DNA of 46,416 bases, counting the filler, from Jimgerdemannia flammicorona (taxonomy: Eukaryota), in the NCBI GenBank assembly GCA_003990765.1. It is 2 parts of 2 records of this genome, joined end to end, with 100 filler letters (N's around TTAATTAATTAA, not from the genome) between each part and the next. Parts side by side here need not be neighbours in the genome. Positions count along the whole stretch, not along the records: positions 1 to 23,160 come from RBNJ01001146.1; 1 more part is not named here. One strand, given 5' to 3'. Position numbers and translations under genes: made by a program. The notes beneath the pieces are model-generated. The model was not told where the DNA came from, searched no databases, and saw only the letters and a list, made by a program, of their open reading frames with translations. Positions 7,495-32,857 of the stretch are shown here, in pieces (position 1 is the stretch's first letter; each line of letters begins with the position of its first letter).

Positions 7495-7915
7495 ACTTAT
7501 AAGCTCACAAATCTACAAGTCTGCAAGCAATAAGTATAAGCTAAGAGTTTTGAATATTGCAATAAGTATAAGTCTATAAGCCTATAATTTTATAAGCAAT
7601 AAGTGTAAGTCTATAAGTCTATAATTCTACAAGTAATAAGTATAAGCTGAGAGCTTCAAATATTATAACAAATATAAACTTACAAACTCATAATCTTATG
7701 AGTAACAAGTATAAGCTGAGAGCTTTAAATATTATAATAAGTATAAGCTCAAAAGTCTGCAATTCTACAAGTAATAAGTATAAGCTAAGAGCTTTGAATA
7801 TTGTAACAAGTATAAGCCTACAAGTCTGCAATTCTGCAAGCAACAAGTATAAGTCAAAAGCTTTGAATATTACAATAAGTATAAGTTAAGAGCTTCAGAT
7901 ATTATAATAAGTATA
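7495..7915. repeat. Degenerate composite tandem repeat, 69-bp unit made of 33- and 36-bp subunits
   Basis: Recurring AAGTAATAAGTATAAGCTGAGAGCTTTAAATATT-ATAATAAGTATAAGC...CAATTCTAC. The 23-aa periodicity shows in the ORF at 7698-7889. Confidence 0.85.
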
Positions 7916-8144
7916 GATAAAATACATATATATAAATAAGCTGACTTTAATAATAAAAGACAAAACAAAAAATGATCTTACCTTATAAAAAACTTCTAGA
8001 GCCTTTGAGAATATGAATAATACTATTAATAAGATTGTTATCTTATTGGATAATGAAGAATCTAAGACTGATAATAAATATAAGAAGAAGAAGAAGTTTA
8101 AAGAAGATTCTTTTACTTAAACTATATAGAATAAGCTAAGCTAT

Positions 8145-8395
8145 ATAGATATCTTTTAGTAAAAAGTAATATATTTTCAAGTTTTACTTCATTTATACTA
8201 GTATATATATAAGATATGGTAGAAGTCTAGTAATAAGATATAATAAGTTTCACTTCTATCTGATAAGTTTTAACAGAATAGTAAGCAAAAGTTTAATGAG
8301 CTCTAAGTATTTAGAGAGAAGATAGTTTGGTCTAAATCTTTTCAAGAGTTTTATAATAGCTACTAGAGCTAGAGATACTGAGAGTAATAGAGGCC

Positions 8396-8431
<36 letters not shown>

Positions 8432-11400
8432 AGTAATAGAGGCAGTTAGAGAGAGACTACAGGGATAGAGAACTAGTATACTGTAGTAGAGAGCAGAAGG
8501 GCTGTTACTAGACCAGTAGTAGTGAGACAGAAGAGATATAATATTAATAGGAAGAGCAGTCAGGTGACCAGTCAGGTATTCAATAGGGGTTAGGAGTAGG
8601 GGGGTACATATGTATAACTAATATGGCTGACAATTCTGGGGCTGAGCTGGTGGCTGATAGTATGAATATAGTTGGGAATGGTATAACTAGTAGTATGACT
8701 ATAGAGATATCTGAAAATAAGAAGAGGACTACACTGGTGGCAGGATCTAGTGAGCTAGTTGTATATTTATTCTTCTATAAGTCAGTATCAATATGAGTAA
8801 TCTTGGTCAACTTTTTGAGACTGAAGTTGTTGACAAGAGAAGTTTTGCAGCTGGTGAGTAAGAAGCTTACAGAAGCAGAGTCTCTAAAGTTTATTTTTTT
8901 GGCAGAGATAGTGGAGATTGGTTTTGTGGAAAAGGATGAGATAATGAGGCCCTGGAGAAAGAATTGATGGTCAAGAGTATCAAGATTAATATAGTGAGAT
9001 ATCTGAGATAAGATCTGCATGCTGTGAGACTAATAGTAAAAGGACTGCTAATACTGGATAAATAGAAGATGAAAGGGATAGTAGCAGAGACTCTCAAGCA
9101 ATATAGAGAGATAGTGGATTTCACATTTATGTTTTAGGAGAGCATAAAGCTGAGAAATAAAAACTGTGAGGCAATAATATAACTGAAGAATAAGAAGAGT
9201 ATTAGTTTTGGAAAAAAAACTAATCTGAGATAATCTATATTGCTGACCAGAAGTATAAGATATGAAAAAGAAAGAGAATAGAGCAGGAGAAGGAGGGGCT
9301 ATTGATTGATCTTGAGGAAAAAGAAGCTACAAAGATATTATATAAAAGGAAATATGTAGAAGGAGTTTGCAAAGAACTGAATTTGAATTCTAGTAGATAG
9401 GAAGAGGAAGAGGTAGAGAAAGAAGAATTGAAAGTATCTACTAACAGTATTGTAAGGAACTATAGAGAAGAAGATAGTAAGGACTAAGATTGATAGGAAT
9501 CAAATAAATAAAGTAGAGATAATAAAGATTTCTTTTTCTCAACTAAAGGGTGTAGGATATTTAGTACATATGTATACCAAAAATGGAGAAATGAGCTGAT
9601 AAGGTGAAGGTACAAAAGAGCAGATTTGAAGAAAAAGAAGAGATAGTTCTAGAGATCCGGATAGAGGATATGTATATAGTGAAGGCTATAAATATTTACT
9701 GAGAATGCCCTAAGATTAGAGAGGTGGTAAGGCTAGAGAAGGTTGCTGAGGAGGATGAGTTGGTAGAGAGTTTCTCTGATTTTTCTATAGATAGAGATAT
9801 ATTTCAGAAATTGAGCAGGGCCCTGAGGTCTGCTATACTAAGACCTCTTATATATATGGCTGAGGATTAGTATAAGGCAGTTCTTGAGGAGTTAACAGAG
9901 AAAGACATCAAGAAGATTGATGTATTTCAAGAGTCTCAGAAGAAGTGAGATAGATTCTTTAATATTATATTATAGATACTAAAGCTGGTGATAGCAATGA
10001 TAGCTAATCTTCTAAAGGATGAGAAATATAAGATAGATAAGACTAAGATGGCTGATATTAATAGAGTGATATCTGATTATATAAATAGCTTTTGTAGTAG
10101 TAAAAATGGCAGATTTATCTAAAGAGCTATCTGTGAGAACTATAGAGATATTATTAGAGAGAAAATAGAAAGAGTAGCAGCCATACCTGAGGATCTTTAA
10201 TCACTCATCTACATATTATAAACAGTTTGTAAATTCTATTACTAAATATTAATAGTCTGCAAGATAGAGTGAAATAGAGATAATTGTTTAAGTGACTGAA
10301 GATCAGAAAGTATAATATAGTATTCTTTCAGGATGTTTGAGCTTATAGTATTCAAAATTACAAGGAGTAAAGTAAGAAATAATTTAGTAGTATATATAAG
10401 TTAAAATAAGTAGATTGGTATCTTGGTTGATATTAGTAAGAGTGAGCTAGTAGAGATAGATACTTATGTAAGCACTTGGTCTGAGAGATATTAAAAAAAG
10501 AAAGCTAGTAATAAACTAGTAGTAGGCTCTATATATCTTTCAATAGTTAGTAGAGAATAAAAGCAATAGATAGAGAAGTGATTGATCTGAGATAGCTGGA
10601 TAGAGATAGAGTTGAACATTTTAAAGGATGATTTTAATATAGTTTAGAATAAGGTATTAGATCACTCAGATAGTAAAGCTAGAGTAGTAATTTCTTCAGA
10701 ACTATCAAGATAGCTTTATATAGAAAAGGACATGAACTTGATTAATAGTATTCAGTAGAGAAGAAGAGATATATCAGAGCTCTTTACTAGATAGTATGCT
10801 ATTAGTAACAGACTAGTAGAGATAAGGATTGACTGGGTGCTAATAGCAGAATACTGGGGCAATATATTAAATACTGTAGAGGTGAGATAGTATCTCTGAT
10901 CAGATTACTGGAGTGTGAAAGTAAGGGACAGATTCTAGATAGTTAGTAATAGTAGTAAATACTGATACCTAAATATAATACTGCTCAGAAGACAGATAGA
11001 AAGAAGTCAATTTGTTGATATTACTAGACAAGAAGTAGTAAGATAGAAGAAGAGTAGACTGCCAGTAGTAGATTAGTAGAGTAGATTTAAATATTTAACT
11101 GGAGCCTACTAGAGAGATATTGGTAAGATTGCAGAAAAAGAGTAGCAAAACAGAGAGAGAAGGACTGAGAGAGGGCTATAGTAGAGGTTGAAGTTAATAG
11201 AATTGGTAGAGTTGCCTGGAGATATATACTGAAAGTTAGCTGTAGAAGTGACTGGACTTCAGTCTGACTTATAGATTGCTGAGAATAGAGTAGTAGATAG
11301 ACTACTGACTCAGTTGTAGACTAGGTAGCTAGAGGAAGGGAAGAGGTCAACTAAGTATCTATCTGATGTTCTGAAGGTCAGAAGAGTGAGATACAGCTGA

Positions 11401-13992
11401 GCTTTATTCTTATGAGAAGATGGTATAAAAGTCTCTGAGATTACTGATATGCTTAAGGAAGTCTCTAGACAATAGCAGGCTCTTTGATAGGATGAGGACT
11501 AGCTTGAGGGTGGTGAGAAGATAGTAATTTTGGATGATGACTTGGTGAGTAACTGGCTGATATAAGCTATGCCTGAGATAAATACTAGGGTGATAGATAG
11601 AGTAACTCTAAAGGAGGTGCTTAGAGTATTGAGAAGATATAGATTAGATCATCTCTAGGAAAGAATAGACTACCTTGGGAATTCTGAAAGAAGTTCTGGA
11701 TGGAGTTTAGAGGTTGGTTGATTGAGATGGTAAACTATATTTTAGAAGAGGGCTGCTGGATTGGCAATGGTCCTTAGGGCTGATCTCTTTACTATATAAG
11801 AAGAAAGAGGATAGAAGGATATGGTACAACTTAAGGCCAATTATACTACTAAATATAAATTAGAAGTTGATCTTGAAAATATTAATAAAGAGAATATAAC
11901 AGTAGATTAGCAGACTGATTAGTAAGGAGTAATATGAATTTATAAAGAGAAGATAGATTAGAGATAGCACTATCTATATTTAGAATATTCTAGAAGATTA
12001 TGGAAGCTATTGGATAGATAGACAGATAGTCTTTTTAGATCAAGAGAAGATATATGATAGAGTGTAATGAGACTATTTAGAGATAGTACTATAGAAGATT
12101 GGATTTGACTTTAATGAGACCAAGAGATTGATAGATTTGGTACAGAGATGTCAAGCTATAGTCTTGATGAATAGCTGAAGTGAGTCTGAGTTTACTTTAG
12201 AAAGAAGTATTCTGCAGAGTAATCTGCTTTCTTTTCTACTCTATATACTTTTATTAAAACCTCTATTAACTTAACTATAGAAACAGTTGACTAGATTGTA
12301 GATGAGAGGAGGGTGGTTTGGAAGCTGAGAGCTTTTGCAGATATATAATATAGTAGTTAAATTAAGATATATAGAAAATGTAGACATTCTATAAATTAGT
12401 ATTAAAAAGTATAAGAGAATGATAGAAGCAAAGTTAAATTGGAGAAAGTATGAGATAATAGAGTTAGATACTAGTTTGAGAGAAGATAGAAGATTTGGAT
12501 ATATAGTGGCTACAGAGAAGGCTATTTGGTATCTAGAGATCTGGTTTCTATATATGAGATGATTCTGTCTAAGGTATGGTGGTGAGAGATAGTGATGAAG
12601 TGGAAGGAGATACTATTAGAATGGTCTGAAAGAAGCTTCTCTTTAGTGAGTAGAGTAGTGATTTTGAATATTTATTAACTATCAAAGTTATAGTATGTGG
12701 GCTATTATTTAGATTTTTCTGAATAAGTAGTGAGGAGACTGTGGAGAATTATTGAAGAATGGTTTTAATGAGAAAGATGGTTACAGATTAGTTGAGAGAT
12801 AATAATAATAAGAGTAGCTGATAGGAGCTTGGGCTTAGTGAACTTTTAGAGGAGACTAAAGGCCCTTTAAGATTAGTGGAAGTAGAGACTGGTAGTCTTG
12901 AGAGAAGAGGGATAGGGCAGACTAACTATAATAATTAGAAGGTCAGATTCTGCCTATATAGTATAAAATTGAAGGATTTGAGAGATCTGCTCCAGATGGA
13001 AAATATTGGTCAGAGTTTCTGATAGAGTATAGTTGAGATCTGATTGACTATAAGACTAATTGGGCCTGAGGTAGAGAATGATAAGAATCTTGAGAAAAAT
13101 TGATAAAAGCTAAAATTACTTAGAGTTAGATATAGTAGCTTAGAGAAGTACTCATTAGAGGAAGCTATAAAATAGATAAGAGTAGACTCACTTAAGTGAT
13201 AGCCAGTTGATTGATAAAAGACTGGAATTAGTAATTCTTAAGAATGAAAAGTAACTTAAAGCTGGGCAGACTCTTTATATCAGTTGGTACCTTCTTAGTA
13301 CTGAGTAGTGTGGTGGTGATTTTTGAGAAAAAATGTGATACTAGGTTACTATATAGACTAGATAGTAGCTGAGAGCTATTGTAAGTATGAATAGTATATA
13401 GAGATTTAAGATAAGATAGTACAGATATCAGAGTATGTCTTAGTAGTCTGTCCTGTGATAGAAGATTATTAGCTGAGCTTGGAGAAGTATTAGAGCTTTA
13501 AAGATAGGAGACTAGAGAATACTATTAAGATAATAGTTAAAAGAAGATTGATAGGAGAGACAGATAATGTGTAAGATAGTATTAATCAGATTCTAGATAT
13601 CTGAGTCCTAATAACTACTCATTAGTGATGGGTCTTTAAAAAAAGACAATAGATAGGAGTTAGAGAGCTGATAGATAGATGATAGTAGTTTTTCTGAGAA
13701 ATAATACAAGAGTAGTAGTATCAGGGGAAGCAGAATCAATTAAGAGCTCTAAAGAGAGTATAGGAGATTATAATATAAAATCAGAGCTACTTAGTATTAG
13801 ATAACTAGAGTGAGATAGAAGAAAGATATTAACTAATAGTCTCTTTTGAGATTATAAATCTATATCTTCTTTATATAAAATAGTTACTACTGATTTAATA
13901 TGTAGACAATTTATTATATATAGAATTAATAGAATAAAGTATTATAGTATTTATAAAAAATAAAAAATAAAATAAAAAAAAATAAAAAAAAA
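8145..13992 (+). mobile_element. LINE family C copy 1, near full length, very heavily decayed
   Basis: Residual motifs: FFQD (~10323), GDFNI-like (~10628), RIDWV (~10826), PWSDH-like (~10894), LEEGKRSTKYLSDVLKVRRV (~11330), FLDQEKIYDRV (~12032), QGDPLS-like (~12215), AFAD (~12331). Degenerate poly(A) at 13954-13992. Similar to 14320-17609. The 5' boundary is approximate. Confidence 0.85.
8380..8443 (+). mobile_element. Minimal TPRT insertion: CTAT + A30 flanked by a perfect 15-bp TSD
   Basis: GAGAGTAATAGAGGC at 8380-8394 and 8429-8443 flanks CTAT(A)30. LINEs in this window end in ...GACTAT(A)n. Confidence 0.85.
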
Positions 13993-14019
13993 TTAAAGAA
14001 GTAATTAAGCAATTTATCT

Positions 14020-14280
14020 TAAGAACTATCTCTGAAGTTACTCCTCAGACTACCTCTGAAGCCTCTACTCCTGAGATCTCTGAAGTCACTATCTAAACTC
14101 AAGCTATTATCTAAGCTTAAATCACTATCTAAGCTATCACTACTGCCCAAGTTCAAGCTATATACTACTGCTGCCTAAGCTGCTACTGCTATCTAAGTTA
14201 CTACTACTGTATAAACTACCACTCAAGCCCAAGCTACTGCCCAAGCCCAAGTCACTACTATCATCTAAGCCACTATTTTA
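14020..14280 (+). repeat. Low-complexity degenerate repeat (CAAGCT/ACTACTGCC-type units; Gln/Ala/Thr-rich if translated)
   Basis: Repeated (C/T)AAGC(C/T) and ACTACT/ACTGCC words in triplet phase, e.g. TQAQATAQAQVTTI near 14221. Confidence 0.55.
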
Positions 14281-14287
14281 AAAACTA

Positions 14288-14291
<4 letters not shown>

Positions 14292-14322
<31 letters not shown>

Positions 14323-17300
14323 GTCACTTAGACTCCTTTATTACAAACTATCTAATATAATAATAACAAACTACAAACTACTACTAATATCACATAATAC
14401 ACATAAGTAGAGTCCTTCAGCCAACTCCTTCCTTTTATCTTACCCTATAATTATCTAATACCAGATACCCTTGACTCCACTGTATAATGTCCTGCACCTT
14501 CTTTAAGGCCTCTGGTTGAAGTTGCTTCCCTTGATATCACTACCCCTAAACCACTTTCTGGAGAAGCCACCTCTACCACTCCACCATCTCTCTAATCCCC
14601 ATCCATGGATCCTGTTCAAAAATCTACTGCCAATGCACTGCCATCAAGGCCCAGACCCCCAGAACTCTACCTAGGCTCCCCCATATATTACCAATTTCCC
14701 CTACCAGTCGATACTTGACCACCAGACTGGCCAGATCCTCTGTCCTTTATCTCTCTGAGCCCCAGTAACCTTCCAAACTCTGCCAAAACCCTTCTATGTC
14801 TGAGCAGGCCCCCAGAATATGTTCCAGTGTCTGAACAACCCCTCTATCTACCTTATTACACCACTCACAGTTCCAACAGCTATCTACTTCCATCCAGCCT
14901 ATCCAATAGCTCAGCATCACATTACATCTCAAAAATTGCCACCAAACCACCCAGTACTTGGGTGACACCAACTTACATACTGAGGCTCCCCAATTCCAAA
15001 TTTGAACCCACTCCCAGTCTTCACCAATATCAGCTCTCTGCCAACCAGGTGGCCATCTCTCCAGAGGGCTGGATCTGATCCACTCCATTGCCTCAATCAG
15101 AGAGTACTCCTTTAGACTGTGGCCATCAATGTGAAGGTCTCCCAGTCACCACCATCTCTGCTCAGAGTTCTCACCCACCTCTATTTCTAGACCTGCCAAC
15201 CCCATGGCCAGCCAGACCTCTACAATACCCCACCAGAACCCCTTAAACCACAGTCTACCTACACTTCCAACCTGAAGCAAGCCCCGTATATTCTTCCAAA
15301 CCTCACCACAAGAGCAGAACCAGACCTTCCAATTGTCTATGGCCAGCCTGCCCCAACCTTCCTCACCTAGTTCTATCATTTGGCATCCCCACCAACCCTG
15401 AAGTACCTTCAGCCAGCACCTGAAATCCATCAGCCCCAGGCCTCCATCAGAAGTTCTCATCACCAAAGTCTCCCATCCAATCTGTGGATACCTCCTATAT
15501 CATAACCACTCTTCTATAATCTTCTTCAGCTACTGCACCACCCACTCCGGAAAATCCAGATGATAACCCAGATACTACAGTTTGGGCAGCCAATACACAT
15601 TCAAGACCACTATCCTGCCAACCAAGGAGAAGCTCCTCCCTGACCAATCTGTCAGTGCACCTTCCAGTTTCTAAATCAATCCACACCACCACTCCCTTGG
15701 CAGGACTATCCCATATACTGAGAACCAGATACCCAGATACCAAACAGTACTCTCTGTAGCTATCAGTTGTCTGAATTGTCCATATCCCCCCAGGCCGGCA
15801 CCAAGTTCCATTGTCTCACACTTGCCCCAATTCAACTTTGCCCCTGCCAGCCTCTCATACTGTCCAACCCCCTCTTGTAGAGCTTCTATATTCTCCCGAC
15901 TACCCAACTCTACCATCATGTCATCTGCAAAGGCACCCAACTGCCAGACCACATCTCTCATCTGCAGTCCAGAGAGCCACCTCTTTAGCCATACTAGCAA
16001 AGGCTCCAGAGAAAGTACATAAAGAAGGGGGGAGAGAGGATCCCCCTGTAGTACTCCTCACCCCAAGGCAAATTCTGGTCCACACCATCCATTCATCATT
16101 ACTGCTGCTCAGCTTCCCCTTACCAAGCCCATCAGTTACCCTGCCTTTACTACACCAAACCCTGCCCTCCTTAGAATAGCCTCCAGGTAACTCCACCACA
16201 CTCTATCATAGGCCTTCTCTTGATCCAGAAAGATCATCTGGCCATCTACCTGCTGGCTCCTACAGCTCTCTAAGACATTCTGCACCCAGACAGTACTGTC
16301 TCTGATCTGTCTCTCCTTGACAAAGCCTTACTGCTCTTTCTCAACTAGCATACCAACATACTGCTGTATCCTCCCTGCTAGAATCTTTGATACCAACTTT
16401 CTATCCACATTCAGCAGCATGATCAGTCACCAATTACACTATACTTGTTGATCTCTCTTCTCCTTATATAGAAGAGAAACTAGCCCCAAGGAACTATTGC
16501 CAATCCAGCTACCCTCCTTCAGAACAGTATTGGCCATCTCCACCAACTAGTCACCAAACTCGGTCTTGAACTCCTTCCAGAATTCCCAGGGCAACCCATC
16601 CTCCCCAGGAGATGAACCAGTCTACATCTTCCTCAGTACTTCCAATACTTCATCTAGAGATACCTCCCCCATGACTGCCTCCCCTATCTTGGGTATCACT
16701 GCTACTGGCCAATTAGTCACCATATTGTTGTTATCCTCCCCAAGCCTGGCACTCTCAGCATACTCCCTGCTATTCTGCCAAAGAGCTTGCCATTGGCCAG
16801 ATACCTCCTCTAATATGTCAGCAATCCCAGAGACCTCTACTCCATCTTCATGCAATACTGAGGCCCAACTATGTCATACTCTTCTGGCCTTCAAGACACC
16901 AAACAGATATCTCATCGGCCTCTCTCCTTCTTCCAACCATCTAGCTTGCAGTCTGGCCAGCAGGCCATCAACCACCCTGGTCTCAGACACCCTTAAATCT
17001 ATCTGCAGCTCTGCCACCTCTAATGCCAACCAGTGGCACACCTCTCCAGACAAGTTCCCTCTTTCCAAAAGCTTCAATTACCATCTCAGCTCCTTCTCTA
17101 CTCTCCTTTTCTTGTCCTTCTGTTCCTTTCCCGCCACTTCTCCAACATCATGCTAGTAAGCACTAGCCAAATGTTTAAATTTACCCCACCATTCTGCTAT
17201 CAACTGCCCTTCATTCTACCATTGTATAACTTCCTGTCTCATAACCATCACAAAATTGTCCCTCTCCTTCTTTCTCTTGAGTAAGGCCACATTGAGGCAC

Positions 17301-17609
17301 CAGCACCCTCTACCACTGCCTGCTGCTTGGAATCTACCACAAACCTCTACTCTCTAGTGATCAGACCAAGGGCACTAGCACATCTCAGTAGTGTCCAGTA
17401 TATTGCCCCAGCACTCTGCCACTAGTACTCAATCTATTCACATCCCTACCAATGCTGTTCCAACTGGATAACACTGGGTGAAAGATTCCAACTTATCTCC
17501 TTATTGTTGATGAATGCCATCCATCAAACCTGTGTTATGCTCCACCTGAAGCCATTGAGAAAGTCCAGAGAATACTGTGACTTCTGCTCCACCATCAGAC
17601 CTATCCAGT
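14292..17609 (-). mobile_element. LINE family C copy 2 (3' part of ORF2 with poly(A)), interrupted in the endonuclease by the gypsy element
   Basis: Poly(T) 14292-14319. Motifs CPWSDH, LEEGERPMRYLFGVLKARRV, SPGEDGLP, FLDQEKAYDRV, GAFADD, YLGIWF, GGLGLMDF, CEWC...TLEHILGAC. Stops abruptly at the LTR start (17610). Confidence 0.92.
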
Positions 17610-19676
17610 TGTAAGCGCACAACCTCCAAGCCACCGAAATTACATGTCACCCTCTGAACAAGCCACCGAAATTACACGCGACCTCTGAACAAATCTGGAA
17701 ATCACCTGCTTGATCACGAAGCTGAGTCAAACCAAAGTCACAGTGCACAAAGCTGAGTCAATACAAAGTCATGGAATATAAGATTTATACAAACGGAATC
17801 TTACCAATCAGGACCAAATGCATATATACCAAGCACCAAGATGCATCAAATCAGAGAACCAAAACAAACAACAACCACAACTTCCAAATACACAAATATG
17901 ACCACTGAGATCTACAACTGTATCCATGCTGACATTTGGAATGCCATTGTTAACTGAGCCACACCCCCTCTGCCCCTCATAAATATCCATAGCCTGGCAC
18001 CCCTCTACTTCGTGGAAGCCCGATGGAACACCCTGAACATGCTTAGTGAGGCCCACTGAATCGGACAAATCTCAAGCTACTACCAGATTGACCACCTCCT
18101 GGAAGATATGGTCGAACACCACCATGATACAGACATTACCCAGATGTCTCAACACCAGAAGCTCATCACCCGCAAACATCGAGAACTCTTCTATGAGTAC
18201 AATACCTTTATTCCCTGCCTCCGAGTCACTACCAGTGAAATGGTTGCTACCCTGTCCTATGGCCAAATCGATGATATGATACAAGAACTCAACCACAAGT
18301 ACCTCGAATACGTCCAGACTATAGACAGAACCTTCCCACACCCTGATGACCATATCCTGCAAATGCCTCAAGTCAGATATGCCATGAAGGATGTCTATGA
18401 TATAATCCACTTCAACGAAGATGAAGCAGAAGACAATGATCCCTCTGATACCGACATGACCTCTAGCCAAGGATCTCTGCCAACCCTGATCACACTGCCA
18501 AACTTGCCGATGAACTTGCAACAGTTCATAACTGCATACAAGACTTATTGAGACAATGACCACTGGTATGAATACTAACCTGCGTTCACCCCTGACTACT
18601 TCAACTACAATGAGGAGACCAGAGAACACAATCTGTACCTCCAGACAACCCTCGAGATTAAACCAACCACTCTACCACCTGAGTACGAGCAATATGAACC
18701 ATAGCCGCCAGCTTACTACAATCCTGCAACTCATAGTGCTGTAACCTATAGAAGATATGTAGATAGTGAATCTGATGAAAGCGAAAACAATATACCCATC
18801 CTTCGCCCACCAACACCTTATCCAGCCTATGAGACAGACGATGCTATCCTGTGGGACGGAGATGAAGTCCCAATGTATTACTACCTCAGCGAACAAGGAG
18901 AAGTAATCTGCGAACCACTCTTCCTAGATGACTACTTTATCAGAGATGATGCAATCGATGGTGATGTCATCGAAGACTACCCAGATAGTGCCTAAACCCA
19001 TAAATAGCCTAGCAGTTATAGTATAGTTAGATTAGCATTGTATGATGTGACTGTGAACTGACTCAGCAGTCAGACGATCTCTTGATATATCAGATCACAC
19101 TTATACTATGTGACTACATTCCGACTTAACAAGGCACTTAGTGCTACATCCATATCTAGCATAACCCAGATAGCCCCTCACTAGTATAAATACCCCCTCC
19201 CCCAGACCTCAGAATCTCAGACTTGAACACACAAGAACATTCCTGAATACTTCCCCACAATACCCCTTCACACAACTACTCCTAGTATACATAGCAATAT
19301 CATGAATAGCAAATAAACCTATTCCATAACCCACAAACTACTCTTAAGTAAATTCACTCCCTGTTAGGTCCTACTCCTAACCCCGTCACGAAATTTCCTA
19401 ATTGGGTATTATCTGCAGCGATACGCCAATTCAACTAAGCTGGTCTTAGTTTCTTGAACTTCCTGAAATACGGAAAATCCTGAACATCTAGAACCAGTCC
19501 AAAAAAAGGACTTTGGTTGAGACATCAACCTAATCTTGGAATCAATAAGCATAGAGGACATACTCCATACAAAATTGATCTTGACCATAAGAAAACGGTC
19601 TTCCAGAACATTCAGAATATCCAGAAAACCCTTCCAGAACTACGTAATGGTCACCCTAAAAAGTAACCCTCTTACA
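17610..19676 (+). repeat. 5' LTR of gypsy copy 1 (2067 bp)
   Basis: Starts TGTAAG and ends CTTACA (6-bp inverted termini), the same termini as the LTRs of copy 2. TATAAATA at 19185-19192, AATAAA at 19312-19317. Followed by the PBS. Confidence 0.9.
17841..18995 (+). pseudogene. Orphan 385-codon ORF inside LTR U3, function unknown
   Basis: One frame from ATG 17841 to TAA 18995 with no frameshift. The five internal stops (17955, 18057, 18549 TGA; 18576 TAA; 18702 TAG) each revert with a single T-to-C change. Includes ORF-track entry 18108-18551. Confidence 0.7.
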
Positions 19677-19679
19677 ACT

Positions 19680-19690
19680 TGGTAGCAGCA
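19680..19690 (+). promoter_or_regulatory. Primer-binding site, probably initiator tRNA-Met
   Basis: TGGTAGCAGC 3 nt after the LTR end. TGGTAGC is complementary to the GCUACCA 3' end typical of fungal and animal tRNAi-Met. Confidence 0.7.
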
Positions 19691-19715
19691 GTTTTCAATC
19701 CAATTCTGCTTCAAG

Positions 19716-22700
19716 ACGCTTCCTCACCCCACTACAAACCCCTCTGCGAATTTCTACAAGTTGGTATAAAGCCCAACCTCTGAACTGGAATTTATCTTGA
19801 ACCATCTGACAATCTGGAGAGAATCGAACCTGATGTATAAGGACAATTTGACCTCCACACCTGCAACAAGTGGGACAAACTTCATTCAAAGAAAGAAGTA
19901 CTCAGGTTAAATCAGCAAATAGGCAAAATCCTATTCACCAAACTCCTTGCACTACACCCAGCAAGCCAAGATGAAGAAGGTCTTATTGAAGCCTTCTTTA
20001 CTCTTCTCAACAAGAGTTTTGTCAGCTCCACAAATCCAAGTGACCTAGGACAACCAGCAGCAGTCTTTCTAGCCTTAGTTCCTCATGAAGCCCAAGCCTC
20101 TATAGCCAAGTGGCTCAACTCTACCAACTTTCACCGCACCAGGACTAAGACTGCCTTATACTACCGATTCCAGAACAGCAAGGCCTGCCATATTCTTAAA
20201 GAAGAAGCAAGAGAAACCCTTCATCAACTACCTGACCCTGAACCTGAAGCAGGCCCTGCCACAGCCCTACTCGAATCTGAAACTAATACTGAACCTGAAC
20301 TTGACTTTGAATTAAGTCCATCTGAAATCAGATATATAACTGATTCTGTCTACTTTGACGCTGAGCAAACCCAATTACATGGGGACCAAACCGAAGAAGA
20401 GGAGGAGTATCTCAGTAAATTCAATCCCAGATATACCACTGAAGGAGAAGTACCTCCATCAGGACAGAATACACCTACATAGCAATAAATAGTTATCTAT
20501 CAAGCCCTCACTCCAGATCCACAACTACTACTCCAGCAACTTACACAGACCCAAAGAACCCCATCACACTCTGCACCAGTACCTCAAGTAGTATCAGTAA
20601 CACCACTACCAGCAGTCCAACCGCCTCCAGTAAACAACATAGTGAACCAACAGATTCTAGACCTCACAGCCCAAGTAGCTATAATGGCAGCAACCATTAC
20701 TGCCTTAGCTGAACAGACCCAACCTACCAAAAATCTGAGCCTACCTACCTTCAATAGTACTGCATAAGAAGTCCAAAGCTTTATTAGTGTAGTTGACACC
20801 AACTTCGAAGCCAATCAATGGACCAATGAGCAAGTAGCTGACTGTGTTCTGACAAACAATCAAGACCACACCCTGGAACAACTCTTTGCTACAACTACAG
20901 CCTATGTCCACTGAGTTGTTACATTCTTCCGAGGACCTGCCGAAGAATGGTGGCGAACCCTTCCTGAAAAACCCCTCACATGGGATACCCAACCTGCAGT
21001 AGTTGCCCAGAATGCAGCAAACAATGCCCCAGGATACAGAGCCCATCCTGCAGCCCCTGGACTCAAACAACTCATGATTGCCCAATACCGCAGTGAAACC
21101 ATGATTGCTGAATCTCGAGTAAAACTCCACAACCTCAAATTTGATGTATATGACAAAGAAGAATTTGAAACCTTCTATACAAAACTCGAGTCACTCCTGA
21201 ACACTGTTGGCCTAGGATACATCGCCAATGATGAAGCACAAAATGGTACAAGAGCAGACCATTTATTTGATGCACTACCTGAATGGCTTAATAGAAAAAT
21301 CCGAGAACAAGGCCGCCCAGTTGGTTGTGACCACCAACAATGGTGCCTGGCAAAAATTAAGACCATAGTCAAGCGAATCCTAACAGCTGGACCAATTCTG
21401 CCCCGAAGGCAATTCAACAACAAGAAAAAGACTTGGACTAAGAAAGAAGAACCCAAGCATGAAGCATCTTGAGCTCCCTCCACATCCACCTCTTGGACAC
21501 CCAGAAATCATGAACCCACCCAGCCAAGTACCTTCAAGAAACTTACTGAAGGCGAAAGAAATGAACTTCGAAGAAGTGGAGCATGCTTCTATTGCTGAAA
21601 GACAGGACACATGGCCAGTGCCTGCCCCAACCGAAAACCCCGAACAGCAACATGAGCAACTGTTACCACTCTGCACCACCTCAACAACCTGACCACCAGA
21701 ACACTGGACTTTGTCAAGTTAAGACAAACTGCTAAGGCCCCAACTAAAGGAAGTCAAAAAGCAGCTGGATATGACCTGTATACAGCCGAAGAAGCTACAG
21801 TTTCTAACCGAGAAGTCAAACAAGTCTATACAGGAATTAGTATCCAAATCCCTGAAGGACATGTTGGAAGAATATGCTGTCACAGCAGCCTAGCACTGAA
21901 AGGACTCTCAGTAGAAGGAGGAGTCATTGACGAAGATTATATAGGCGAAATTATTGTCCTCATTCGAAACCACAGTTGGACACCCTTCAAGATCCCTATT
22001 GGCTTCTGCATCACCCAGATCCTATTCGAAAAAATTGAGTTAATGCTGACAGTCAAGGAAGTCCCTGAACTACTGCCCACCATCTGAGGATCTAAAGGAT
22101 TTGGCTCATCAAACAAAGCCCCAGCCAAACCTACTATAAGCAAAGAAGAACAATTCTACAAGAAGATCGAAGATAGATATGTACCAAGTGGCTGATGCCC
22201 TCATGGTATTGGAATGTACTCTTCCCGAATGATTGATGATTGCTTCTCTTGTGTCAACAAACTGGCTCAAAGAAGAACCAACAGAAGAAAGGCTCCTATA
22301 ACTGAAATCACCACCATTAGATCAGACAAACTGCTCACCCTTAAGGCTTTTGTCAATGGAGCACCTGTCAAGATTATGATAGACAGTGGTGCCTCAGGCA
22401 ACTTCATCAATGAGGAAACAGCCAACAGACTCAAGGTCTTCACCTCTCCAGTACAGCAAACTCAAGCAGTTGCTACAGCTGATGGAATCTCATATGTTAT
22501 TAGCAAAGAAGTCCGCAATCTACCCTTCTGAATTGGCGACTACCGAGTACATGTTACCCTCCAAATCGTACCACTTCCTGACAATGAAATCATCCTTGGG
22601 ACTCCATGGTTAAAACAAGAGAACCTCATGATTGATTGGGTAAACCATTTGCTGACCATCAAGAAAGGACACCACAACTTCAAACTACAAGGTGAAAAGG

Positions 22701-23160
22701 ACCCACTCAACTCTAGGGACCCTAGACCAAAGATCACCCATATCAACAAGCTACAACTGAAGAAATTGGCCAAGAAATGTCCTCTCTTTGCCATCTCCAT
22801 CCGACCATCCAAAGGAGAACCCGAGAACTCTGAAGAAGATTTTTCCAAAGTTGATAGCCATGTCAGACCACTACTCCAGAAATTCCGAGACATATTCCCA
22901 AAGAAGCTCCTGAAAGGCCTACCTCCCAAATGAGTAGTAGACCATACAATCAAGACTATCCCAGATGCCAAACCAGCCTTCAAGTCAATCTACCACATGT
23001 CTCTGAGAGAAATTGATGTACTCAAGAAGGAAATCGATGAACTCCTAGAACAAGGATTCATCAGACCCAGCATATCACCCTATGGTGCACCAGTCCTCTT
23101 TGTTGTCAAAAAAGGAGGAGACCTGCGAATGTGCATTGACTACTGCGATCTCAATGAACA
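19716..23160 (+). pseudogene. gag-pol: Single gag-pol polyprotein: N-terminal extension, gag, CCHC, dUTPase, aspartic protease, RT start
   Basis: ORF-track pieces at 21074, 22214, 22628 and 22997 are in one frame, and stops between them are TGA/TAA/TAG from C-to-T. Motifs LPTFN, FRGPAEEWW, CFYC(R)KTGHMASAC (21584-21625), IDSGASGNFI (~22380), IILGTPWL. Confidence 0.9.
21704..22111 (+). pseudogene. dut: Trimeric dUTPase domain within the polyprotein
   Basis: All five motifs in order: AAGYDL, GRICCHSSLA, GGVIDEDYIGEI, ITQIL, (R)GSKGFGSS. Confidence 0.95.
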
Positions 23161-23260
23161 NNNNNNNNNNNNNNNNNNNNNNNNNNNNNNNNNNNNNNNN
23201 NNNNTTAATTAATTAANNNNNNNNNNNNNNNNNNNNNNNNNNNNNNNNNNNNNNNNNNNN
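23161..23260. other. Assembly gap with artificial six-frame-stop linker
   Basis: Ns flanking TTAATTAATTAA (23205-23216). Contiguity across it is not guaranteed. Confidence 0.97.
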
Positions 23261-23409
<149 letters not shown>

Positions 23410-24674: not shown

Positions 24675-25858
24675 TTTTTTTTTTTTTTTTTATGAACTCA
24701 TAGTCCCATGGATTTTTATTAGAAGAGAACCTAGACTATATAGGCCAAAACCCTCCCCTACCACCTACCAAGCACTACTCTTTTATTAAACCTAGGCTAG
24801 CTATTGTCCAGTGGCTTGACTATGCCAGATATAGCAGAGCCTATAGTGGCCCATATCTCATTCTGTATACTATACTCTTCCTATCACTAGGGAGAACTCA
24901 GCCATATGTCAACAACTGAAAGCATACACCTGAAATTCCAACATATGTACAAGGCCATGCCCAAGCTAAATAGAATAGCCTCTGCTACTCTAAGTAGAAA
25001 TAACAGACAAAGAAAAAACTCTCCTTAAGATATAGAACAGTGGGTAGAGTCTGGTTCTCCCAAGTGAGGTGAGTAGAGGACTTACACATGAGGTAAGAGG
25101 AGACTCCCAATACCCCACTACTTAAGTCTGCAGGCCTTGATCATATTGCCACATCAGCTTCTGGTTCTAGTTGAGTACAGCTAAGATGCCTAACATAGGT
25201 AGCCTCAGACCCCCCAGCCCCCTCTAATGACCAGAGCTCAACCTTACAAATCACCAAAAGAAGCCAAGAGTGATACCTACTACCTAACTGCTCTACACTA
25301 ATCAAAAGGCCCCACTGAAGCAGCACTCACCCCAGTCCTGATGACTACCTCAGCCTAGTACTCTACTGGTCTACTGTAATTGCCCTTCCTCTTATCTATT
25401 ATGGCCATCTCCCCTCCTAACCTGATATCACCTGAAAAATAGTTATCTATATCATAACTATACTCACTGGAAAGTTTGCCAAAGCCAGAGGGCCCCATCA
25501 TAAGTACTGAAGACCTGCAGATAATCTATACTGGGCACTTGATGCCTAAGGTCAGTCAACTTTCTACATAATCTGTAATATACCAAGATGACACCTTGTT
25601 GACAACAGTAAAAGGAAGATATTACACCAAAATAGGTATATTCAAGATATAGCTAAAGGTACCAGAAATTGCAAAAAAGTAGAGAAGATACTAATCTGAT
25701 ACTGATAAAGGAACAACTCATCACCATTGCCTCCCTCCTACTGTCCTGCAGTAGATATAGCAAACCAACCTGAGGTAGAGAGAGTATTAGTTATGGAAAG
25801 AGAACTCAGAAGATTGCCTACCAAACTATTATGACTGGTAAAGTAGCAGAGAAAAGAG
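24675..25858 (-). mobile_element. LINE family D copy 2: ~1.18-kb 3' fragment with poly(A) and 16-bp TSD, inserted in the copia RT
   Basis: Poly(T) 24674-24691. TSD CTATAAAAATCACTCT (24659-24674) vs CTGTAAAAACCACTCT (25859-25874), differing by two transitions. Confidence 0.85.
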
Positions 25859-26483: not shown

Positions 26484-27980
26484 TGTAAGAGGGTTACTTT
26501 TTAGGATGACCATTACATAGTTCTGGAAGGGTTTTCTGGAAGTTCTGGATATTCTGGAAGACTGTTTTCTTATAGTCAAGATTAATTTCATATGGAGTAC
26601 ATTCTCTATGCTTATTGATTTCAAGTTCAGGTTGACATCTCAACCAAAGTCCTTTTTTGGACTAGTTCTGGATATTCAGGATTTTCCATATTTCAGGAAG
26701 TTCAAGAAACTAAGACCAGCTTAGTTGAATTGGTGTATTGCTGCAGACAATACCTAATTAGGAAATTTCATAATGGGTTAGGAGTGGGATCTAATGGGGA
26801 GCAGATTTACTTAAGGGTGGTTTGTGGGTTATTAAATAGGTTTATTCACTATTTATGATATTGCTATATTAGGAGTAGTTGTGTGAAGGGATATTGTGGG
26901 GAAGTGCTCAGGAGTTGTGTTCGGATTGTTCAGATCTGAGATTCTGAGGTCTGGGAGAGAGAGTATTTATACTAGTGAGGGGCTATCTGGACTATACTAA
27001 ATATGGATGTAGCACTTAGTGCCTTGCTGAGTCGGAATGCAGTCATATAGTATAAGTGTGATCTGATATGTCAAGAGATCATCTGACTGTAGAGTCAGTT
27101 CACAGTCATGTTATACAAGGCTAATCTAACTATACTATGACTGCTAAGCTATTTATAGATTTAGGTGCTGTCTGGTTAGTCTTTGATGACATCACTATTG
27201 ATGACATCATTGCTGACAAAGTCTGAGCAGTTTTCTGACTTCTGATATTATCAGTTTTCAAGATATCGTCACTTCTATCTCTTGCAAGATTAAGACTGTC
27301 CTTGGTGGTGGTGGTTGTACATATAAGGATAACAGGTCTTAGTTCTCTTTTTTTTTGGTCTGCTGGCGCATTTGCGAGGACTGGCCATTCTCATCTAGAG
27401 TGAGGGTTCCCAATGTTATGGCTGGAGATTCAAACCTCTTGGAAATGATATTTTCTATAATCTGAGGCAATTTCTAGTAGTAATATCTGTCATGTGGATG
27501 GCTTGAGATTGGTTTTGACAATGTCGGCTTTTTTGAGTTCAGATGAAATGTCTGTCACTCTCCAACAGAGGTGATACAGATAGAGTGAATGAAGTTGTTC
27601 AAATGTGTTTTACTTCTGCTAAGTAATAAGGTCTTGTATAGTTGCAGTGTATCTTGGTCTTGAGTTGATAAGTGCAGTTCGTGAACCTTTTGGTAGATAA
27701 GATAGGGTTCTTCTTATCTCGATTTGAGTTTGGTACTTTCGGTTTCCTTTTGTAATAGTACAGTACACCAAACTAGTTATAGCAGTTCGGAGTCAGTCTT
27801 ATGGTTGTAGTACTTCTTCTAGTATTCTTGTATCTTGGCGGTGGGTTCTCATGCTTGCTGGCATATTTCGTGTAACCAGATGATCTCTTCAGTAACTTGT
27901 TTTGTAGTCTCACATATGGTTTCCAAATTAGTTCTGAGGATGCCATGCGATTTTGGTAGCTTGGAGGTTATGCGCTTACA
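26484..27980 (-). repeat. 3' LTR of gypsy copy 2 (1497 bp)
   Basis: Direct repeat of 31375-32857 with TGTAAG...CTTACA termini, adjacent to the PPT. Confidence 0.95.
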
Positions 27981-27996
27981 ACTCTCCCCTTCTTAA
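27981..27996 (-). promoter_or_regulatory. Polypurine tract
   Basis: TTAAGAAGGGGAGAGT immediately before the 3' LTR on the minus strand. Confidence 0.85.
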
Positions 27997-30900
27997 CTTT
28001 CGACATCCTCATCGAGGCCTTCTAATTTGTTCTGGTGTTATTGTACCATTTGGATGGTTCTTGTGGCTGTGTTTGTTGAGAATTTGTTCAACTTTGTATT
28101 CTTCTTGGTCATTAAGAATGACAGGTGCAGGTGGTTCTGTAATTCAGTTCAGAAATGTGTCTCGGAATTTCTGGAGTAGTGGTCTGATGTGGCCGTCAAC
28201 TTTGGAAAAGTCTTCTTTGGAGTTCTCAGGTTCTCCTTTAGATAGGCAGATAGAGATGGCAAAAAGAGGGCATTTCTTGGCCAATTTCTTGAGCTGTAGC
28301 TTGTTGATGTGGGTGATCTTTGGTCCAGGATCACTAGAGTTGAGTGGGTCCTTTTCGCCTTGCAGTTTGAAGTTGTGGCATCCTTTCTTGATGGTTAGAG
28401 AATGGTTTACCCAATCAATCATGAGGTTCTCTTGTTTCAACCATGAGGTTCCAAGGATGATTTCATTATCTGGAAGTGGTATGATCTGAAGGGTAACATA
28501 TACTCAGTAGTTACCAATTCGGAAGAGTAGGTTGCAGACTTCCTTGCTAATAACATGTGAGATTCCATCAGCTGTGGCAACTGCTTGAGTTTGTTGTACC
28601 AGAGAGATGAAGACCTTGAGTCTGTTGGCTGTTTCTTCATTGATAAAGTTGCCTGAGGCACCACTGTCTATCATGATCTTAACAGGTGCTCGGTTGACAA
28701 AAGCTTGAAGTGTAAGCAGTTTGTCTGATCCAATGCTGGTGATTTCAGTTATAGGAGCTTTTCTTCTGTTGGTTCTTCTTTGAGCCAGTTCATTGATACA
28801 AGAGAAGCAATCATCAATCATTCGGGAAGAGTACATTCCAATGCCATAGGGGCATCAGCTACTTGGTACATATCTGTCTTCGATTTTCTTATATAATTAT
28901 TCTACTTTGTTCATGGTAGGTTGGGCTGGGGCCTTGTTTGATGAGCCAAATCCTTTGGATTCTCAGATAGTAGGCAGTAGTTCAGGGACTTCCTTGACTA
29001 TCAGGGTTGACTCGATTTTCTCGAATAGGATCTGGGCAATGCAGAAACCGATAGGGATCTTGAAGAGTGTCCAACTATGGTTTCGGATGAGGACAATGAT
29101 TTTGCCTATATAATCTTCATCAATGACTCCTCCTTCTACTGAGAGTCCTTTCAGTGCTAGGCTGCTGCAACAGCATATTCTTCCAACATGTCCTTCAGGG
29201 ATTTGGATACTGATTCCTGTATAGACTTGCTTGACTTCTCAGTTGGAAACTGTAGCTTCTTCAGCTGCATACAGATCATATCCAGCTGCTTTTTGACTTC
29301 CTTTGGTTGGGGCCTTGGCAGTTTGCCTTAACTTGACAAAGTCTAGTGTTCTGGTGGTCAGGTTGTTTAGGTGGTGCAGAGTGGTAACAGTTGCTCATGT
29401 TGCTGTTTAGGGTTTTCGATTAGGGCAGGCACTGGCCATGTATCCTGTCTTTCGGCAATAGAAGCATGCTCCGCTTCTTCGAAGTTCATTTCTTTCTCCT
29501 TCAGTGAGTTTCTTGAAGGTACTCGGCTGAGTGGGTTCATGATTTCTAGGTGTCTAAGAGGTAGATGTGGAGGGAGCTCAGGATGCTTCATGCTTGGGTT
29601 CTTCTTTCTTGGTCCAAGTCTTTTCCTTATTGTTAAATTGTCTTCGAGGCAGAATTGGTCCAGCTATTAGGATTCGCTTGACTATGGTCTTGATTCTCAC
29701 TAGGCACTATTGTTAGTGATCGCAACTAACTGGGCAGCCTTGTTCTCAGATTTTTCTAGTGAGCCATTCAGGCAGGGCATCAAATAAATGGTCTGCTCTT
29801 ATACTATTTCATGCTTCATCATTGGCAATATATCCTAGGCCAATGGTGTTCAGGAGTGACTCGAGTTTTGTACAGAAAGTTTCAAATTCTTTCTTGCTAT
29901 GTATATCAAATTTGAGGTTGTGGAGTTTTACTTGAGATTCAGCAATCATGGTTTTACTATGGTATTGAGCAATCATGAGTTATTTGAGTCCAGGAGCTGC
30001 AGGATGGGCTCCATATCCTGGGGCATTGTTTGCTGTATTCTGGGCAACTACTGCAGATCGGGTATCCCATGTGAGGGGTTTTTCAGGAAGGGTTCGCTAC
30101 CATTCTTCAGTAGGTTCTTGGAAGAATGTAACAACTCACCGGACATAGGCTATGGTGGTAGCAAAGAGTTGTTCTAGAGTGTGGTCTTGATTATTTATCA
30201 GAATGCAGTCTGCAACTCACTCATTTGTCCATTGATTGGCTTTGAAGTTAGTGTCAACTACACTAATGAAGCTTTGGACTTCTTGTGTAGTACCATTGAA
30301 GGTAGGTAGGCTCAGATTTTTGGTAGATCTGGTCTGTTTGGCTAAGGCAGTAATGGTTGCTGCCATTATGGCTATCTGGGCTGTGAGGTCTAAAATATGT
30401 TGGTTTGCCATATTGTTTACTGGAGGCGGTTGGACTGTTAGTAGTGGTATTACTAGTACTACTTGAGGTACTGGTGCAGAATGTGATGGGGTTCTTTGGG
30501 TCTATGTAAGTTGCTGGAGTAATAGTTATGGGTCTGGAGTAAGGGCTCGATAGATAGCTGTCTGTTGCTGTGTCAGTGTATTTTGTCCTGATGGAGGTGC
30601 ATCTCCTTCGGTGGTATATCCGGGATTGAATTCACTGAGATACTCCTCCTCTTCTTCAGTTTGGTCCCCATGTAATTGGGTTTGCTTGGCGTCAAAGTAG
30701 ACAGAATCAGTTGTATATCTGATTTCAGATAGACTTAATTCAAAGTCAAGTTCTGGTTCAGTATTGGTTTCAGGTTCAGGTAGGGCTGTAGCTGGGCCTG
30801 CTTCTGCTTCAGGGTCAGATAGTTGATGAAGGGTTTCTCTTGCTTCTTCCTTAAGAATATAGCAGGCCTTGCTGTTCTGGAATTGGTAGTATAAGGCAGT

Positions 30901-31374: not shown

Positions 31375-32857
31375 TGTAAGAGGGTTACTTTTTAGGGTAA
31401 CTGTTACGTAGTTCTGGAAGGGTTTTCTGGAAGTTCTGGATATTCTGGAAGACTGTTTTCTTATAGTCAAGATCAATTTCATATGGAGTACATCCTCTAT
31501 GCTTATTGATTTTAAGTTCGGGTTGACATCTCAACCAAAGTCCTTTTTTGGACTAGTTCTGGATATTCAGAATTTTCTATATTTCAGGAAGTTCAAGAAA
31601 CTAAGACCAGCTTAGTTGAATTGGCGTATCGCTGCAGACAATACCCAATTAGGAAATTTCATGATGGGGTTAGGAGTGGGACCTAATGGGGAGCAGATTT
31701 ACTTAAGGGTGGTTTGTGGGTTATTAAATAGGTTTATTTGCTATTCATGATATTGCTATACTAGGAGTAGTTGTATGAAGAGATATTGTGGGGAAGTGCT
31801 CAGAAGTTGTGTTTGGATTGTTCAGGTCTGAGATTCTGAGGGGGTATTTATACTAGTGAGGGGCTATCTGGACTATGCTGAATATGGATGTAGCACTTAG
31901 TGCCTTGCTGAGTCGGAATGCAGTCACATAGTACAAGTGTGATCTGATATGTCAAGAGATCATCTGACTGCTGAGTCAGTTCACAGTCACGTTGTACAAG
32001 GCTAATCTTACTATACTATAACTGCTAAGCTATTTATAGATTTAGGTGCTGTCTGGTTAGTCTTTGATGACATCACTATTGATGACATCATCACTGGCAA
32101 AGTCTGAGCAGTTTTCTGACTTCTGATATTATCAGTTTTTAAGATATTATCACTTCTATCTCTTGCAAGATTAAGACTGTCCTTAGTAGCAGTGGTTGTA
32201 TAAGGATAACAGGTCTTGGTTCTCTTTTTTTTTAGTCTGCTGGTGCATTTGCGAGGACTGGCCATTCTCGTCTAGAGCGAGGGCTTCCAATGTCACAGTT
32301 GGGGGTTTGAACCTCTCAGAAATGATATTTTCTATAATCCGAGGCAATTTCTAGTAGTAATATCTGTCACATGGATGGCTTGAGATTGGTTTCAATGATG
32401 TCGGCTTTCTTGAGTTCAGATGAAACATCTGTTACTTTCTAACAGAGGTAATATAGATAAAGCAAACAGAGTTGTTCAAATGCATTTTACTTCTGCTAAG
32501 TAATGAGATCTTATATAGTTGCAGTGTATCTTGGTCTTAAGTTGATAAGTGCAGTTTGTGAACCTTTTGGTAGATGAGATAGGGTTCTTTTTGTCTCAAT
32601 TTGAGTTTAGTACTTTCGGTTTCCTTTTGTAATAGTACAGTACACCAAACTAGTTATAGCGGTTTGGAGTCAGTCTTATGGTTGTAGTACTTCTTCTAGT
32701 ATTCTTGTATCTTGGCAGTGGGTTCTCGTACTTACTGACATATTTCGTGTAACCAGATGATCTCTTCAGTAACTTGTTTTGTAGTCTCGCATATGGTTTC
32801 CAAATTAGTTCTGAGGATGCCATGTGATTTTGGTGGCTTGGAGGTTATGCGCTTACA
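31375..32857 (-). repeat. 5' LTR of gypsy copy 2 (1483 bp)
   Basis: Direct repeat of 26484-27980, followed by the PBS. Confidence 0.95.

Follow-up and report, generated by a model that had tools for sequence, protein, structure and literature searches.

Can the long terminal repeat (LTR) of a retrotransposon hold a protein-coding gene of its own? LTRs are usually treated as non-coding regulatory DNA; they are masked in annotation and assumed to be neutral when insertions are dated. The question is raised by a stretch of 46,416 nucleotides from Jimgerdemannia flammicorona (assembly GCA_003990765.1), here called the window, which consists of two parts joined by 100 filler letters, the first of them (positions 1 to 23,160) from RBNJ01001146.1. 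In this window an open reading frame (ORF) of 385 codons lies entirely within the 2067-bp LTR of a gypsy-type retrotransposon, on the same strand as gag-pol, and its stop codon is 190 bp 5′ of the TATA box of the LTR, TATAAATA. We consider it probable, with room for doubt, that this ORF represents a real accessory gene encoded by the retrotransposon family, situated in the unique 3′ region (U3) of a long form of the LTR, and that the window copy is a pseudogene. That the ORF is real as a gene, taken by itself, is judged to be likely and perhaps very likely. The frame and its internal stops are listed below together with the residues found at the stop positions in two relatives of the protein, P0004 and P0005, which are described further on.

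17841..18995, plus strand: the ORF, 385 codons including the stop, from ATG 17841 to TAA 18993-18995, with 5 internal stops
17955..17957, plus strand: first internal stop, TGA, R in relative P0005 (CGA>TGA)
18057..18059, plus strand: second internal stop, TGA, R in relative P0005 (CGA>TGA)
18549..18551, plus strand: third internal stop, TGA, W in relative P0004 (TGG>TGA likely)
18576..18578, plus strand: fourth internal stop, TAA, Q in relative P0004 (CAA>TAA)
18702..18704, plus strand: fifth internal stop, TAG, Q in P0004, with C at 18702 in nearly all contigs of the public runs (CAG)

How open is this frame, given its stops? The initial annotation had described a single frame from ATG 17841 to TAA 18995, with five stops and no frameshift, inside the LTR and 5′ of the TATA box, and translation confirmed the description in full. 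Over the ORF region, the three plus-strand frames contain 5, 15 and 37 stops and the minus-strand frames 3, 24 and 26. Among 2000 composition-matched simulations under a first-order Markov model, none had five stops or fewer, and the best of three frames showed a mean of 20.5 stops with a minimum of 11. Base composition differs among the codon positions of the ORF (chi-square p=1.7e-13), and its relative synonymous codon usage (RSCU) correlates with that of gag-pol at 0.83, as compared with 0.22 and 0.69 for the other plus-strand frames and 0.05 for the antisense. The density of stops, 5/384 (1.3%), is close to the 11/1106 (1.0%) in the frame of the same copy that encodes gag, deoxyuridine triphosphatase (dUTPase), protease (PR) and the start of reverse transcriptase (RT), which is expected if both were open at insertion and then decayed together. 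The proposal that the ORF decayed like the neighbouring gag-pol is borne out by this similarity and by the prevalence of transitions. The further proposal that all five stops arose by C-to-T changes in CGA, CAA or CAG codons holds for four of them, where the relatives have R, R, Q and Q, and fails for the stop at 18549, for which TGG>TGA is more likely since P0004 aligns W there. A separate transposable element (TE) nested in the LTR was considered as the source of the segment and rejected, as the segment has no terminal inverted repeats, no other match in the window and no TE domain in Pfam.

Relatives of the protein were sought by word-index searches of 5.8 billion clusters and by an exhaustive phmmer search over 1.84 billion representatives. 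Two true relatives were recovered, both metagenomic and both on contigs of about 1 kb. P0005 has 128 amino acids, is 88% identical to residues 20-147 and starts at a Met aligned to position 17898. P0004 has 247 amino acids and aligns with residues 134-383, with 157/250 identical (63%) and 201/250 positive; it is open to the same C-terminus as the ORF, and its two gaps, of 2 codons each, are in frame. At the five stop positions the relatives thus supply R and R (P0005) and W, Q and Q (P0004). The differences between P0005 and the window copy are single-base in 15/15 cases, and in 10 of these it is the window copy that has A or T (3 C>T, 7 G>A), which indicates that the window copy is the decayed one; the two stops aligned with R would also be A/T-ward if they arose by CGA>TGA, and were scored as ambiguous in this comparison. 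In scans of Joint Genome Institute (JGI) metagenome contigs, viral contigs and prokaryote genome contigs no DNA of a relative was found, and the further repeat families of the window gave no match to the ORF protein. Two other candidates from the exhaustive search, P0006 and P0007, were dismissed as relatives: they are bacterial repeat proteins matching short acidic stretches, and the likeness is compositional. The claim of a genuine coding region of the element, wholly in U3 and in sense orientation, finds support in the coding statistics together with the two intact relatives.

The comparison with P0004 was extended to selection by means of a neutral simulation, in which window codons 134-384 were randomly mutated to 63% protein identity in 3000 runs. 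At this identity 3.0-5.1 new stops are expected under neutrality, with a probability of 0.7-3.2% for none, and P0004 has none. The observed fraction of positive columns was 0.804 even with gap and X columns scored as non-positive, while the simulated mean was 0.73-0.74 and the simulated maximum 0.802. Among 69 single-step replacements, 16 (23%) fall at codon position 2 as compared with a neutral 47-50% (standard deviation 6%), and 10/69 fall at codon position 3 as compared with a neutral 5-10%. The pattern in P0004 fits purifying selection on the sense frame, in a comparison that is at the protein level and is not a ratio of nonsynonymous to synonymous rates (dN/dS).

Where does the gene begin? 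The true start is probably ATG 17898 (Met20) rather than ATG 17841, since P0005 starts there and two listed indels fall between the two ATGs. The features of the LTR around the ORF are as follows.

17610..19676, plus strand: long-form 5′ LTR of the gag-dUTPase-PR-RT retrotransposon, 2067 bp, with TG...CA ends
17627-17683 and 17715-17771, plus strand: two pairs of tandem repeats of about 31 bp, 5′ of the ORF
17823..17828, plus strand: TATATA, 70 bp 5′ of ATG 17898
18934..19676, plus strand: part of the LTR common to the short form, with the last ~18-20 ORF codons, TATAAATA, AATAAA and then R/U5
19185..19192, plus strand: TATA box TATAAATA, 190 bp after the ORF stop
19312..19317, plus strand: AATAAA, candidate poly(A) signal of the LTR
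19680..19691, plus strand: TGGTAGCAGCAG, resembling a primer-binding site (PBS), 3 nt past the LTR end, with the same motif after the 5′ LTR of the minus-strand copy

The 5′ end of the LTR reads TGTAAGCGCA, as at 32857 in the LTR of the minus-strand copy, and its 3′ end reads ..TTACA. The length of 2067 bp given in the initial annotation proved correct, with agreement among these ends, the PBS-like motif, and the jump in contig depth and the loose contig ends reported below. The second pair of tandem repeats contains GCTGAGTCAA twice, the sole 2 matches in the window as compared with 0.10 expected, and the tandem repeats are possible enhancer or promoter elements. By its position, TATATA at 17823 may be taken as a candidate TATA element internal to U3. 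The copy number of the 32-bp tandem duplication at 17627-17683 varies in public contigs (joints 17642>17680 and 17652>17684), and the short-form LTR has a single copy of the unit.

Public sequencing runs provide a view of other copies of this LTR. The listing gives 18 runs that contain parts of it; they come from 12 studies, are for the most part soil metagenomes, and at best had a share of 0.25 of its words. None of the 18 is recorded as RNA. Four of the runs (X1, X2, X3 and X11) were compared with the LTR at 80% likeness, contig depth being summed over contigs and not a copy number. The ORF is covered by contigs of 4/4 runs compared. In X1 (3710 contigs) the word depth is 26-41 outside the LTR, 596-1533 over the 5′ LTR and the ORF (ORF bins 627-1533) and about 1000-3000 over the shared 3′ part; where the LTR begins, it climbs from 26 to 596. 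At 17607/17610 and 19676 there are loose contig ends that carry other flanking sequence, and short contigs span from the 5′ part of the LTR into the ORF and from the end of the ORF into the TATA region. Further loose ends, at 17659 and 18934, show that the short form is present in the same runs. The contig differences from the window LTR are overwhelmingly transitions, and at position 18702 the depth with C, out of total depth, is 436.5/441.4 in X1, 57.5/57.5 in X2, 3.43/3.43 in X3 and 25.5/25.5 in X11. Listed indel variants lie at 17854, 17862 and 19217-19503, and none lies in 17898-18995. X11, which is RNA by guess only, has a high depth at 19220-19583 and a low depth over the ORF; skips at 17653>17781, 18505>18591 and 18754>18861 occur in single X11 contigs, all without GT..AG ends.

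Does every LTR of the family bear the ORF? A second, internally deleted copy of the element on the minus strand has LTRs of about 1.5 kb.

31375..32857, minus strand: short-form 5′ LTR of about 1.5 kb in the second, internally deleted copy, with the same ends as the long form
26484..27981, minus strand: short-form 3′ LTR of the same copy, 92% identical to 31375-32858, with a purine-rich tract just before it

The long and short forms agree over ~90 bp at the 5′ end and ~745 bp at the 3′ end. The middle ~675 bp of the short form is unrelated to the long form, so that nothing of the ORF is retained but its final ~18 codons and its stop, and this middle is non-coding, with stops in 10/147 codons in the LTR at 31375 and 11/148 in that at 26484. 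The retrotransposon family is one with a gene-bearing long U3 form and a gene-free short form. The short form appears to derive from the long one, as the common segment keeps conserved C-terminal codons and the stop that are also kept in P0004. In the minus copy (26484-32857) an internal deletion joins the start of RT (28154) to a tail of 38 amino acids (..EEYKVEQILNK..), which may resemble the start of a chromodomain; Pfam returned 0 families for it. The copy looks like a non-autonomous derivative.

What kind of protein would the gene encode? Low-confidence predicted helices fill residues 14-160 and the remainder is coil, and the protein has a net charge of -45. The last 40 residues have a charge of -12 in the window copy, where W/F/Y/L number 10, and of -10 in P0004, where they number 12, and are predicted to be unstructured in both. 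A mixture of acidic and bulky hydrophobic or aromatic residues in a predicted disordered stretch is present, by composition only. Such a composition resembles that of acidic activation domains, and many acidic tails are not activators. Structural look-alikes of P0005 in the Atlas remained below threshold, with a recognition of 2273 against the mark of 2300 and 155 shared features. The tail of the window copy also contains the two motifs on which a functional proposal had been built, and both are present as described.

18675..18686, plus strand: PPEY, residue 279, not kept in P0004
18705..18716, plus strand: PPAY, residue 289, not kept in P0004

Under the preferred reading, the history and expression of the gene might be pictured as follows. 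Since its insertion the window copy would have acquired the five stops and about a dozen replacements through C>T and G>A changes, at the rate of gag-pol. The accessory protein would comprise some 366 residues from ATG 17898, its N-terminal half prone to form helices and its tail disordered, very acidic and rich in Tyr, Phe, Trp and Leu. It may have been expressed from a small transcription unit in each LTR, to which the initial 230 bp, with the repeats and TATATA, and the poly(A) signal of the LTR itself could contribute, or else from the 3′ end of the RNA of the element. The place of the gene on the genomic RNA would be the 3′ U3, with about 260-320 nt between the stop of pol and the gene, and a subgenomic route would be required. 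A further step would be to regard each LTR, solo LTRs included, as a self-contained gene cassette whose acidic, aromatic-rich product acts in trans on the family, for example by activating the LTR promoter or by titrating a silencing factor of the host; we offer this only tentatively and lean against it, and a bolder addition would have the nearly stop-free antisense frame used as well. That the acidic-aromatic tail served as an activation or docking module, aiding transcription of the element or blunting host silencing in the manner of Tas, Tax or Sag, is a speculative analogy and an unlikely one.

Several results weigh against the preferred reading and are gathered here. No family, motif or fold was recognised in the protein: with the threshold relaxed to E<=10, P0001, P0004 and P0005 still matched 0 families of Pfam-A, thus neither Sag nor Nef, and the sequence and profile search of PDB gave only noise (E=0.3), in keeping with the earlier statement that no family could be recognised. 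The AlphaFold2 model has a mean predicted local distance difference test (pLDDT) score of 31, the Atlas model of P0004 a pLDDT of 0.39, and the Atlas contained no usable look-alike for P0004. Only two relatives were found among ~15 billion predicted proteins, both from contigs of about 1 kb, and as gene callers report only open frames, the relatives are subject to an ascertainment bias. P0004 begins at a Met aligned to residue 134, which leaves P0005, the close relative, as the sole confirmation of the N-terminal half. In the public runs the listed indels are merely suggestive, with 0/5 distinct places in 17898-18995 (41% of the compared stretch), and the substitutions within the ORF are split 6/2/6 by codon position, which is no bias (14 among the 42 of 582 rows listed). 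The RSCU of the +2 frame correlates with gag-pol as well (0.69), so that the codon-usage signal is partly one of strand composition. A gene-free short LTR form exists in the same window, which makes the gene dispensable in cis. Finally, the exactly opposite antisense frame (17841-18992, minus strand) has only 3 stops in 384 codons, and the sense codons TTA, CTA and TCA together make up 0.8% of the ORF as compared with 4.2% of gag-pol, about five times rarer.

These last two counts are grounds for supposing that the antisense frame is the selected one, or that both strands are coding as in the HBZ and ASP genes of retroviruses, the sense frame being a shadow. The antisense frame has fewer stops than the sense frame (3 as against 5), and the replacements that are synonymous in antisense, 31/69, are slightly raised over a neutral 31-38%. 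The antisense product, however, would be of unnatural composition, with 14% V and 11% I and with 1% each of K and P, and would be extremely hydrophobic; it has no Met near its start and the first at residue 87, and its codon usage is uncorrelated with that of gag-pol as given above (0.05). Replacements at sense position 3, which is antisense position 1, are enriched and not depleted; both relatives were recovered as sense-frame proteins starting at Met codons common to the window; and three antisense pieces had no match in Pfam. We hold selection on the antisense to be very improbable. A frame opened by chance, from the skewed and G-poor composition of decayed repeats, might be suspected in view of the strong regional GC skew and the long frames on both strands of neighbouring elements, and yet none of the 2000 composition-matched simulations came close, two independent relatives are intact, and stops make up 7% of codons in the short-form LTR, whose composition is similar; chance is hardly credible as an explanation.

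More weight attaches to the idea of a hitch-hiking piece of a host or foreign gene, captured into U3 by template switching and still open only because the copies are young, although we find this improbable too. U3 is the most plastic part of an LTR, and what separates the two forms here is a middle segment that has been replaced entirely. Transposition of the short form took place in the absence of the gene (its two LTRs are 92% alike), and neither a function nor a fold could be recognised for the protein. Against capture, the exhaustive search brought up no cellular homologue, and each of the two relatives has the look of a further copy of this ORF. The relative that is 63% identical is still open, with in-frame gaps, few changes at position 2 and conservative replacements. 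Moreover, the last ~18 codons and the stop are common to both LTR forms and conserved in P0004, and the codon usage of the ORF is that of gag-pol. The initial annotation had itself suggested a role for PPEY and PPAY, which lie in the Pro/Tyr-rich disordered tail of the window copy, in making the protein an adaptor that recruits WW-domain ligases of the Nedd4/Rsp5 type or the endosomal sorting complex required for transport (ESCRT). This role is not supported by the comparison with P0004, in which 0/2 motifs are kept and the sites read PLSEY and QPLAY; the region is outside P0005. PPxY, LPxY, PTAP and YPxL are absent from both P0004 and P0005, and PPTPYPAY, the proline stretch that is conserved, does not conform to PPxY. 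With PPEY and PPAY absent from P0004, the only basis of the WW/ESCRT idea is gone, and an adaptor of this sort is regarded as scarcely more probable than the antisense gene. An element-encoded accessory gene in the long-form U3 thus remains our preferred reading.

Are there precedents for a gene in such a place? The gene-in-LTR layout is known mainly from complex retroviruses. In mouse mammary tumour virus (MMTV) the superantigen ORF sag lies in the U3 of the LTR. The ORF described here is like sag in being a sense ORF of about 1 kb wholly in U3, and so in both LTRs, and accessory to the core gag-pol machinery. It is unlike sag in that there is no likeness in Pfam, the protein is acidic and predicted to be disordered whereas Sag is a membrane glycoprotein, and the carrier is a gypsy-type element lacking env. 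Other 3′ accessory genes that overlap U3 are nef of the human and simian immunodeficiency viruses (HIV/SIV) and tas/bet of foamy viruses, which have an internal promoter. These also lie at the 3′ end of the genomic RNA and reach into U3, and the acidic transactivator Tas provides a functional analogy to the tail; they start internally and only overlap U3, however, while the present ORF is wholly in U3 and shows no homology to them.

Among retrotransposons, plant Ty3/gypsy elements contain further additional ORFs (aORFs). Extra ORFs in gypsy-type elements include the ORF3s of bdelloid rotifers (PMC5408684) and CERV of Cer1 of C. elegans (PMC10309623). The present ORF resembles the rotifer, C. 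elegans and plant examples in being a lineage-restricted extra ORF besides gag and pol, with a function that is unknown or regulatory, and differs from them in that theirs, as far as is known, lie in the internal region, either ahead of gag or between pol and the 3′ LTR, and in that no sequence likeness exists. The fungal gypsy family crapaud of Podospora has LTR subfamilies with a conserved 3′ half and a replaced 5′ half of U3 before the TATA box (PMC10787394); the variable part is less than 200 bp there and is treated as regulatory DNA, while it is 1.2 kb and protein-coding here. In fungi, dUTPase occurs in the gypsy polyproteins of basidiomycete and ascomycete elements at variable position (PMC2864245); the dUTPase here is likewise part of the polyprotein and lies between gag and PR. 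A figure legend of that paper mentions an additional ORF of unknown function, and its available passages state no LTR location for it. Among the papers listed in the literature search, none was found to report a conserved gene that lies entirely within an LTR of such an element.

What would follow from such a gene? If the conserved U3 gene is real, solo LTRs can stay protein-coding units after the element is lost, accessory genes of the type found in complex retroviruses also arose in gypsy elements without env, and dating by LTR divergence is biased for such families. If LTRs act as self-contained cassettes, this would be, judging from the portions of the literature that the search returned, the first accessory gene wholly within the LTR of an LTR retrotransposon, and a fungal-type counterpart of sag and tas. 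The orphan protein with its extreme acidic-aromatic tail is a candidate for a regulator or anti-silencing factor encoded by a TE.

The carrier element itself is represented by one long frame downstream of the LTR.

19841..23158, plus strand: gag (with CCHC knuckle), dUTPase, aspartic protease and the start of RT in one frame, 11 stops in 1106 codons, no frameshift

Pfam, scanned with stop-free ORF pieces, returned dUTPase (1.3e-28), gag-asp_proteas (3.2e-09) and RVP_2 (1.2e-05) on this frame, with Retrotrans_gag (0.0044) below the cut-off. The dUTPase domain lies at 21656-22084 (plus strand), between gag and protease in the single gag-pol frame. The gag knuckle has the pattern C-x2-C-x4-H-x4-C, with one stop within it, and the RT motif ..RMCIDYCDLNE was read by eye, the piece of 75 amino acids having no match in Pfam. 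TG..CA LTR ends, a PBS-like site, a CCHC gag, a retropepsin and the start of an RT were all found in the plus element, which places it with Ty3/gypsy. The plus copy is interrupted inside RT by runs of N from 23161. There are two such runs of 44 bases (23161-23204 and 23217-23260), after which poly(A) extends for over 100 bases at about 23261-23400, and they were read as an assembly gap or a masked stretch. On the other side, a minus-strand retroelement at 14000-17459 abuts the 5′ end of the LTR, with RVT_1 at 16057-15674 (E=3.9e-09); an inverted relative of it, 63% alike, is found at 10807-12799 on the plus strand.

The window as a whole is a nest of decayed LTR retrotransposons with a strongly skewed base composition. 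GC skew forms blocks (-0.3 to -0.57, or +0.4 to +0.5), for example 1-6000, 14000-23000 and 34000-46416 as against 8000-14000, and follows these blocks and not the coding strand. Most changes that distinguish copies are transitions (270/305 in the internal region), the observed/expected ratio is 0.26-0.47 for CpG and 1.4-1.95 for TG, and private C>T and G>A changes are commoner in CpA/TpG than in CpG context. The decay of the window looks deamination-driven and resembles repeat-induced point mutation (RIP). A tandem array at 7484-7924 contains 5 copies of a unit of about 69 bp, 66-80% alike, in a stretch of 22% GC, and the other repeat families (201-6439, 24738-25854, 34545-35456 and 41249-45456) show 72-81% likeness among members that lie far apart in the window.

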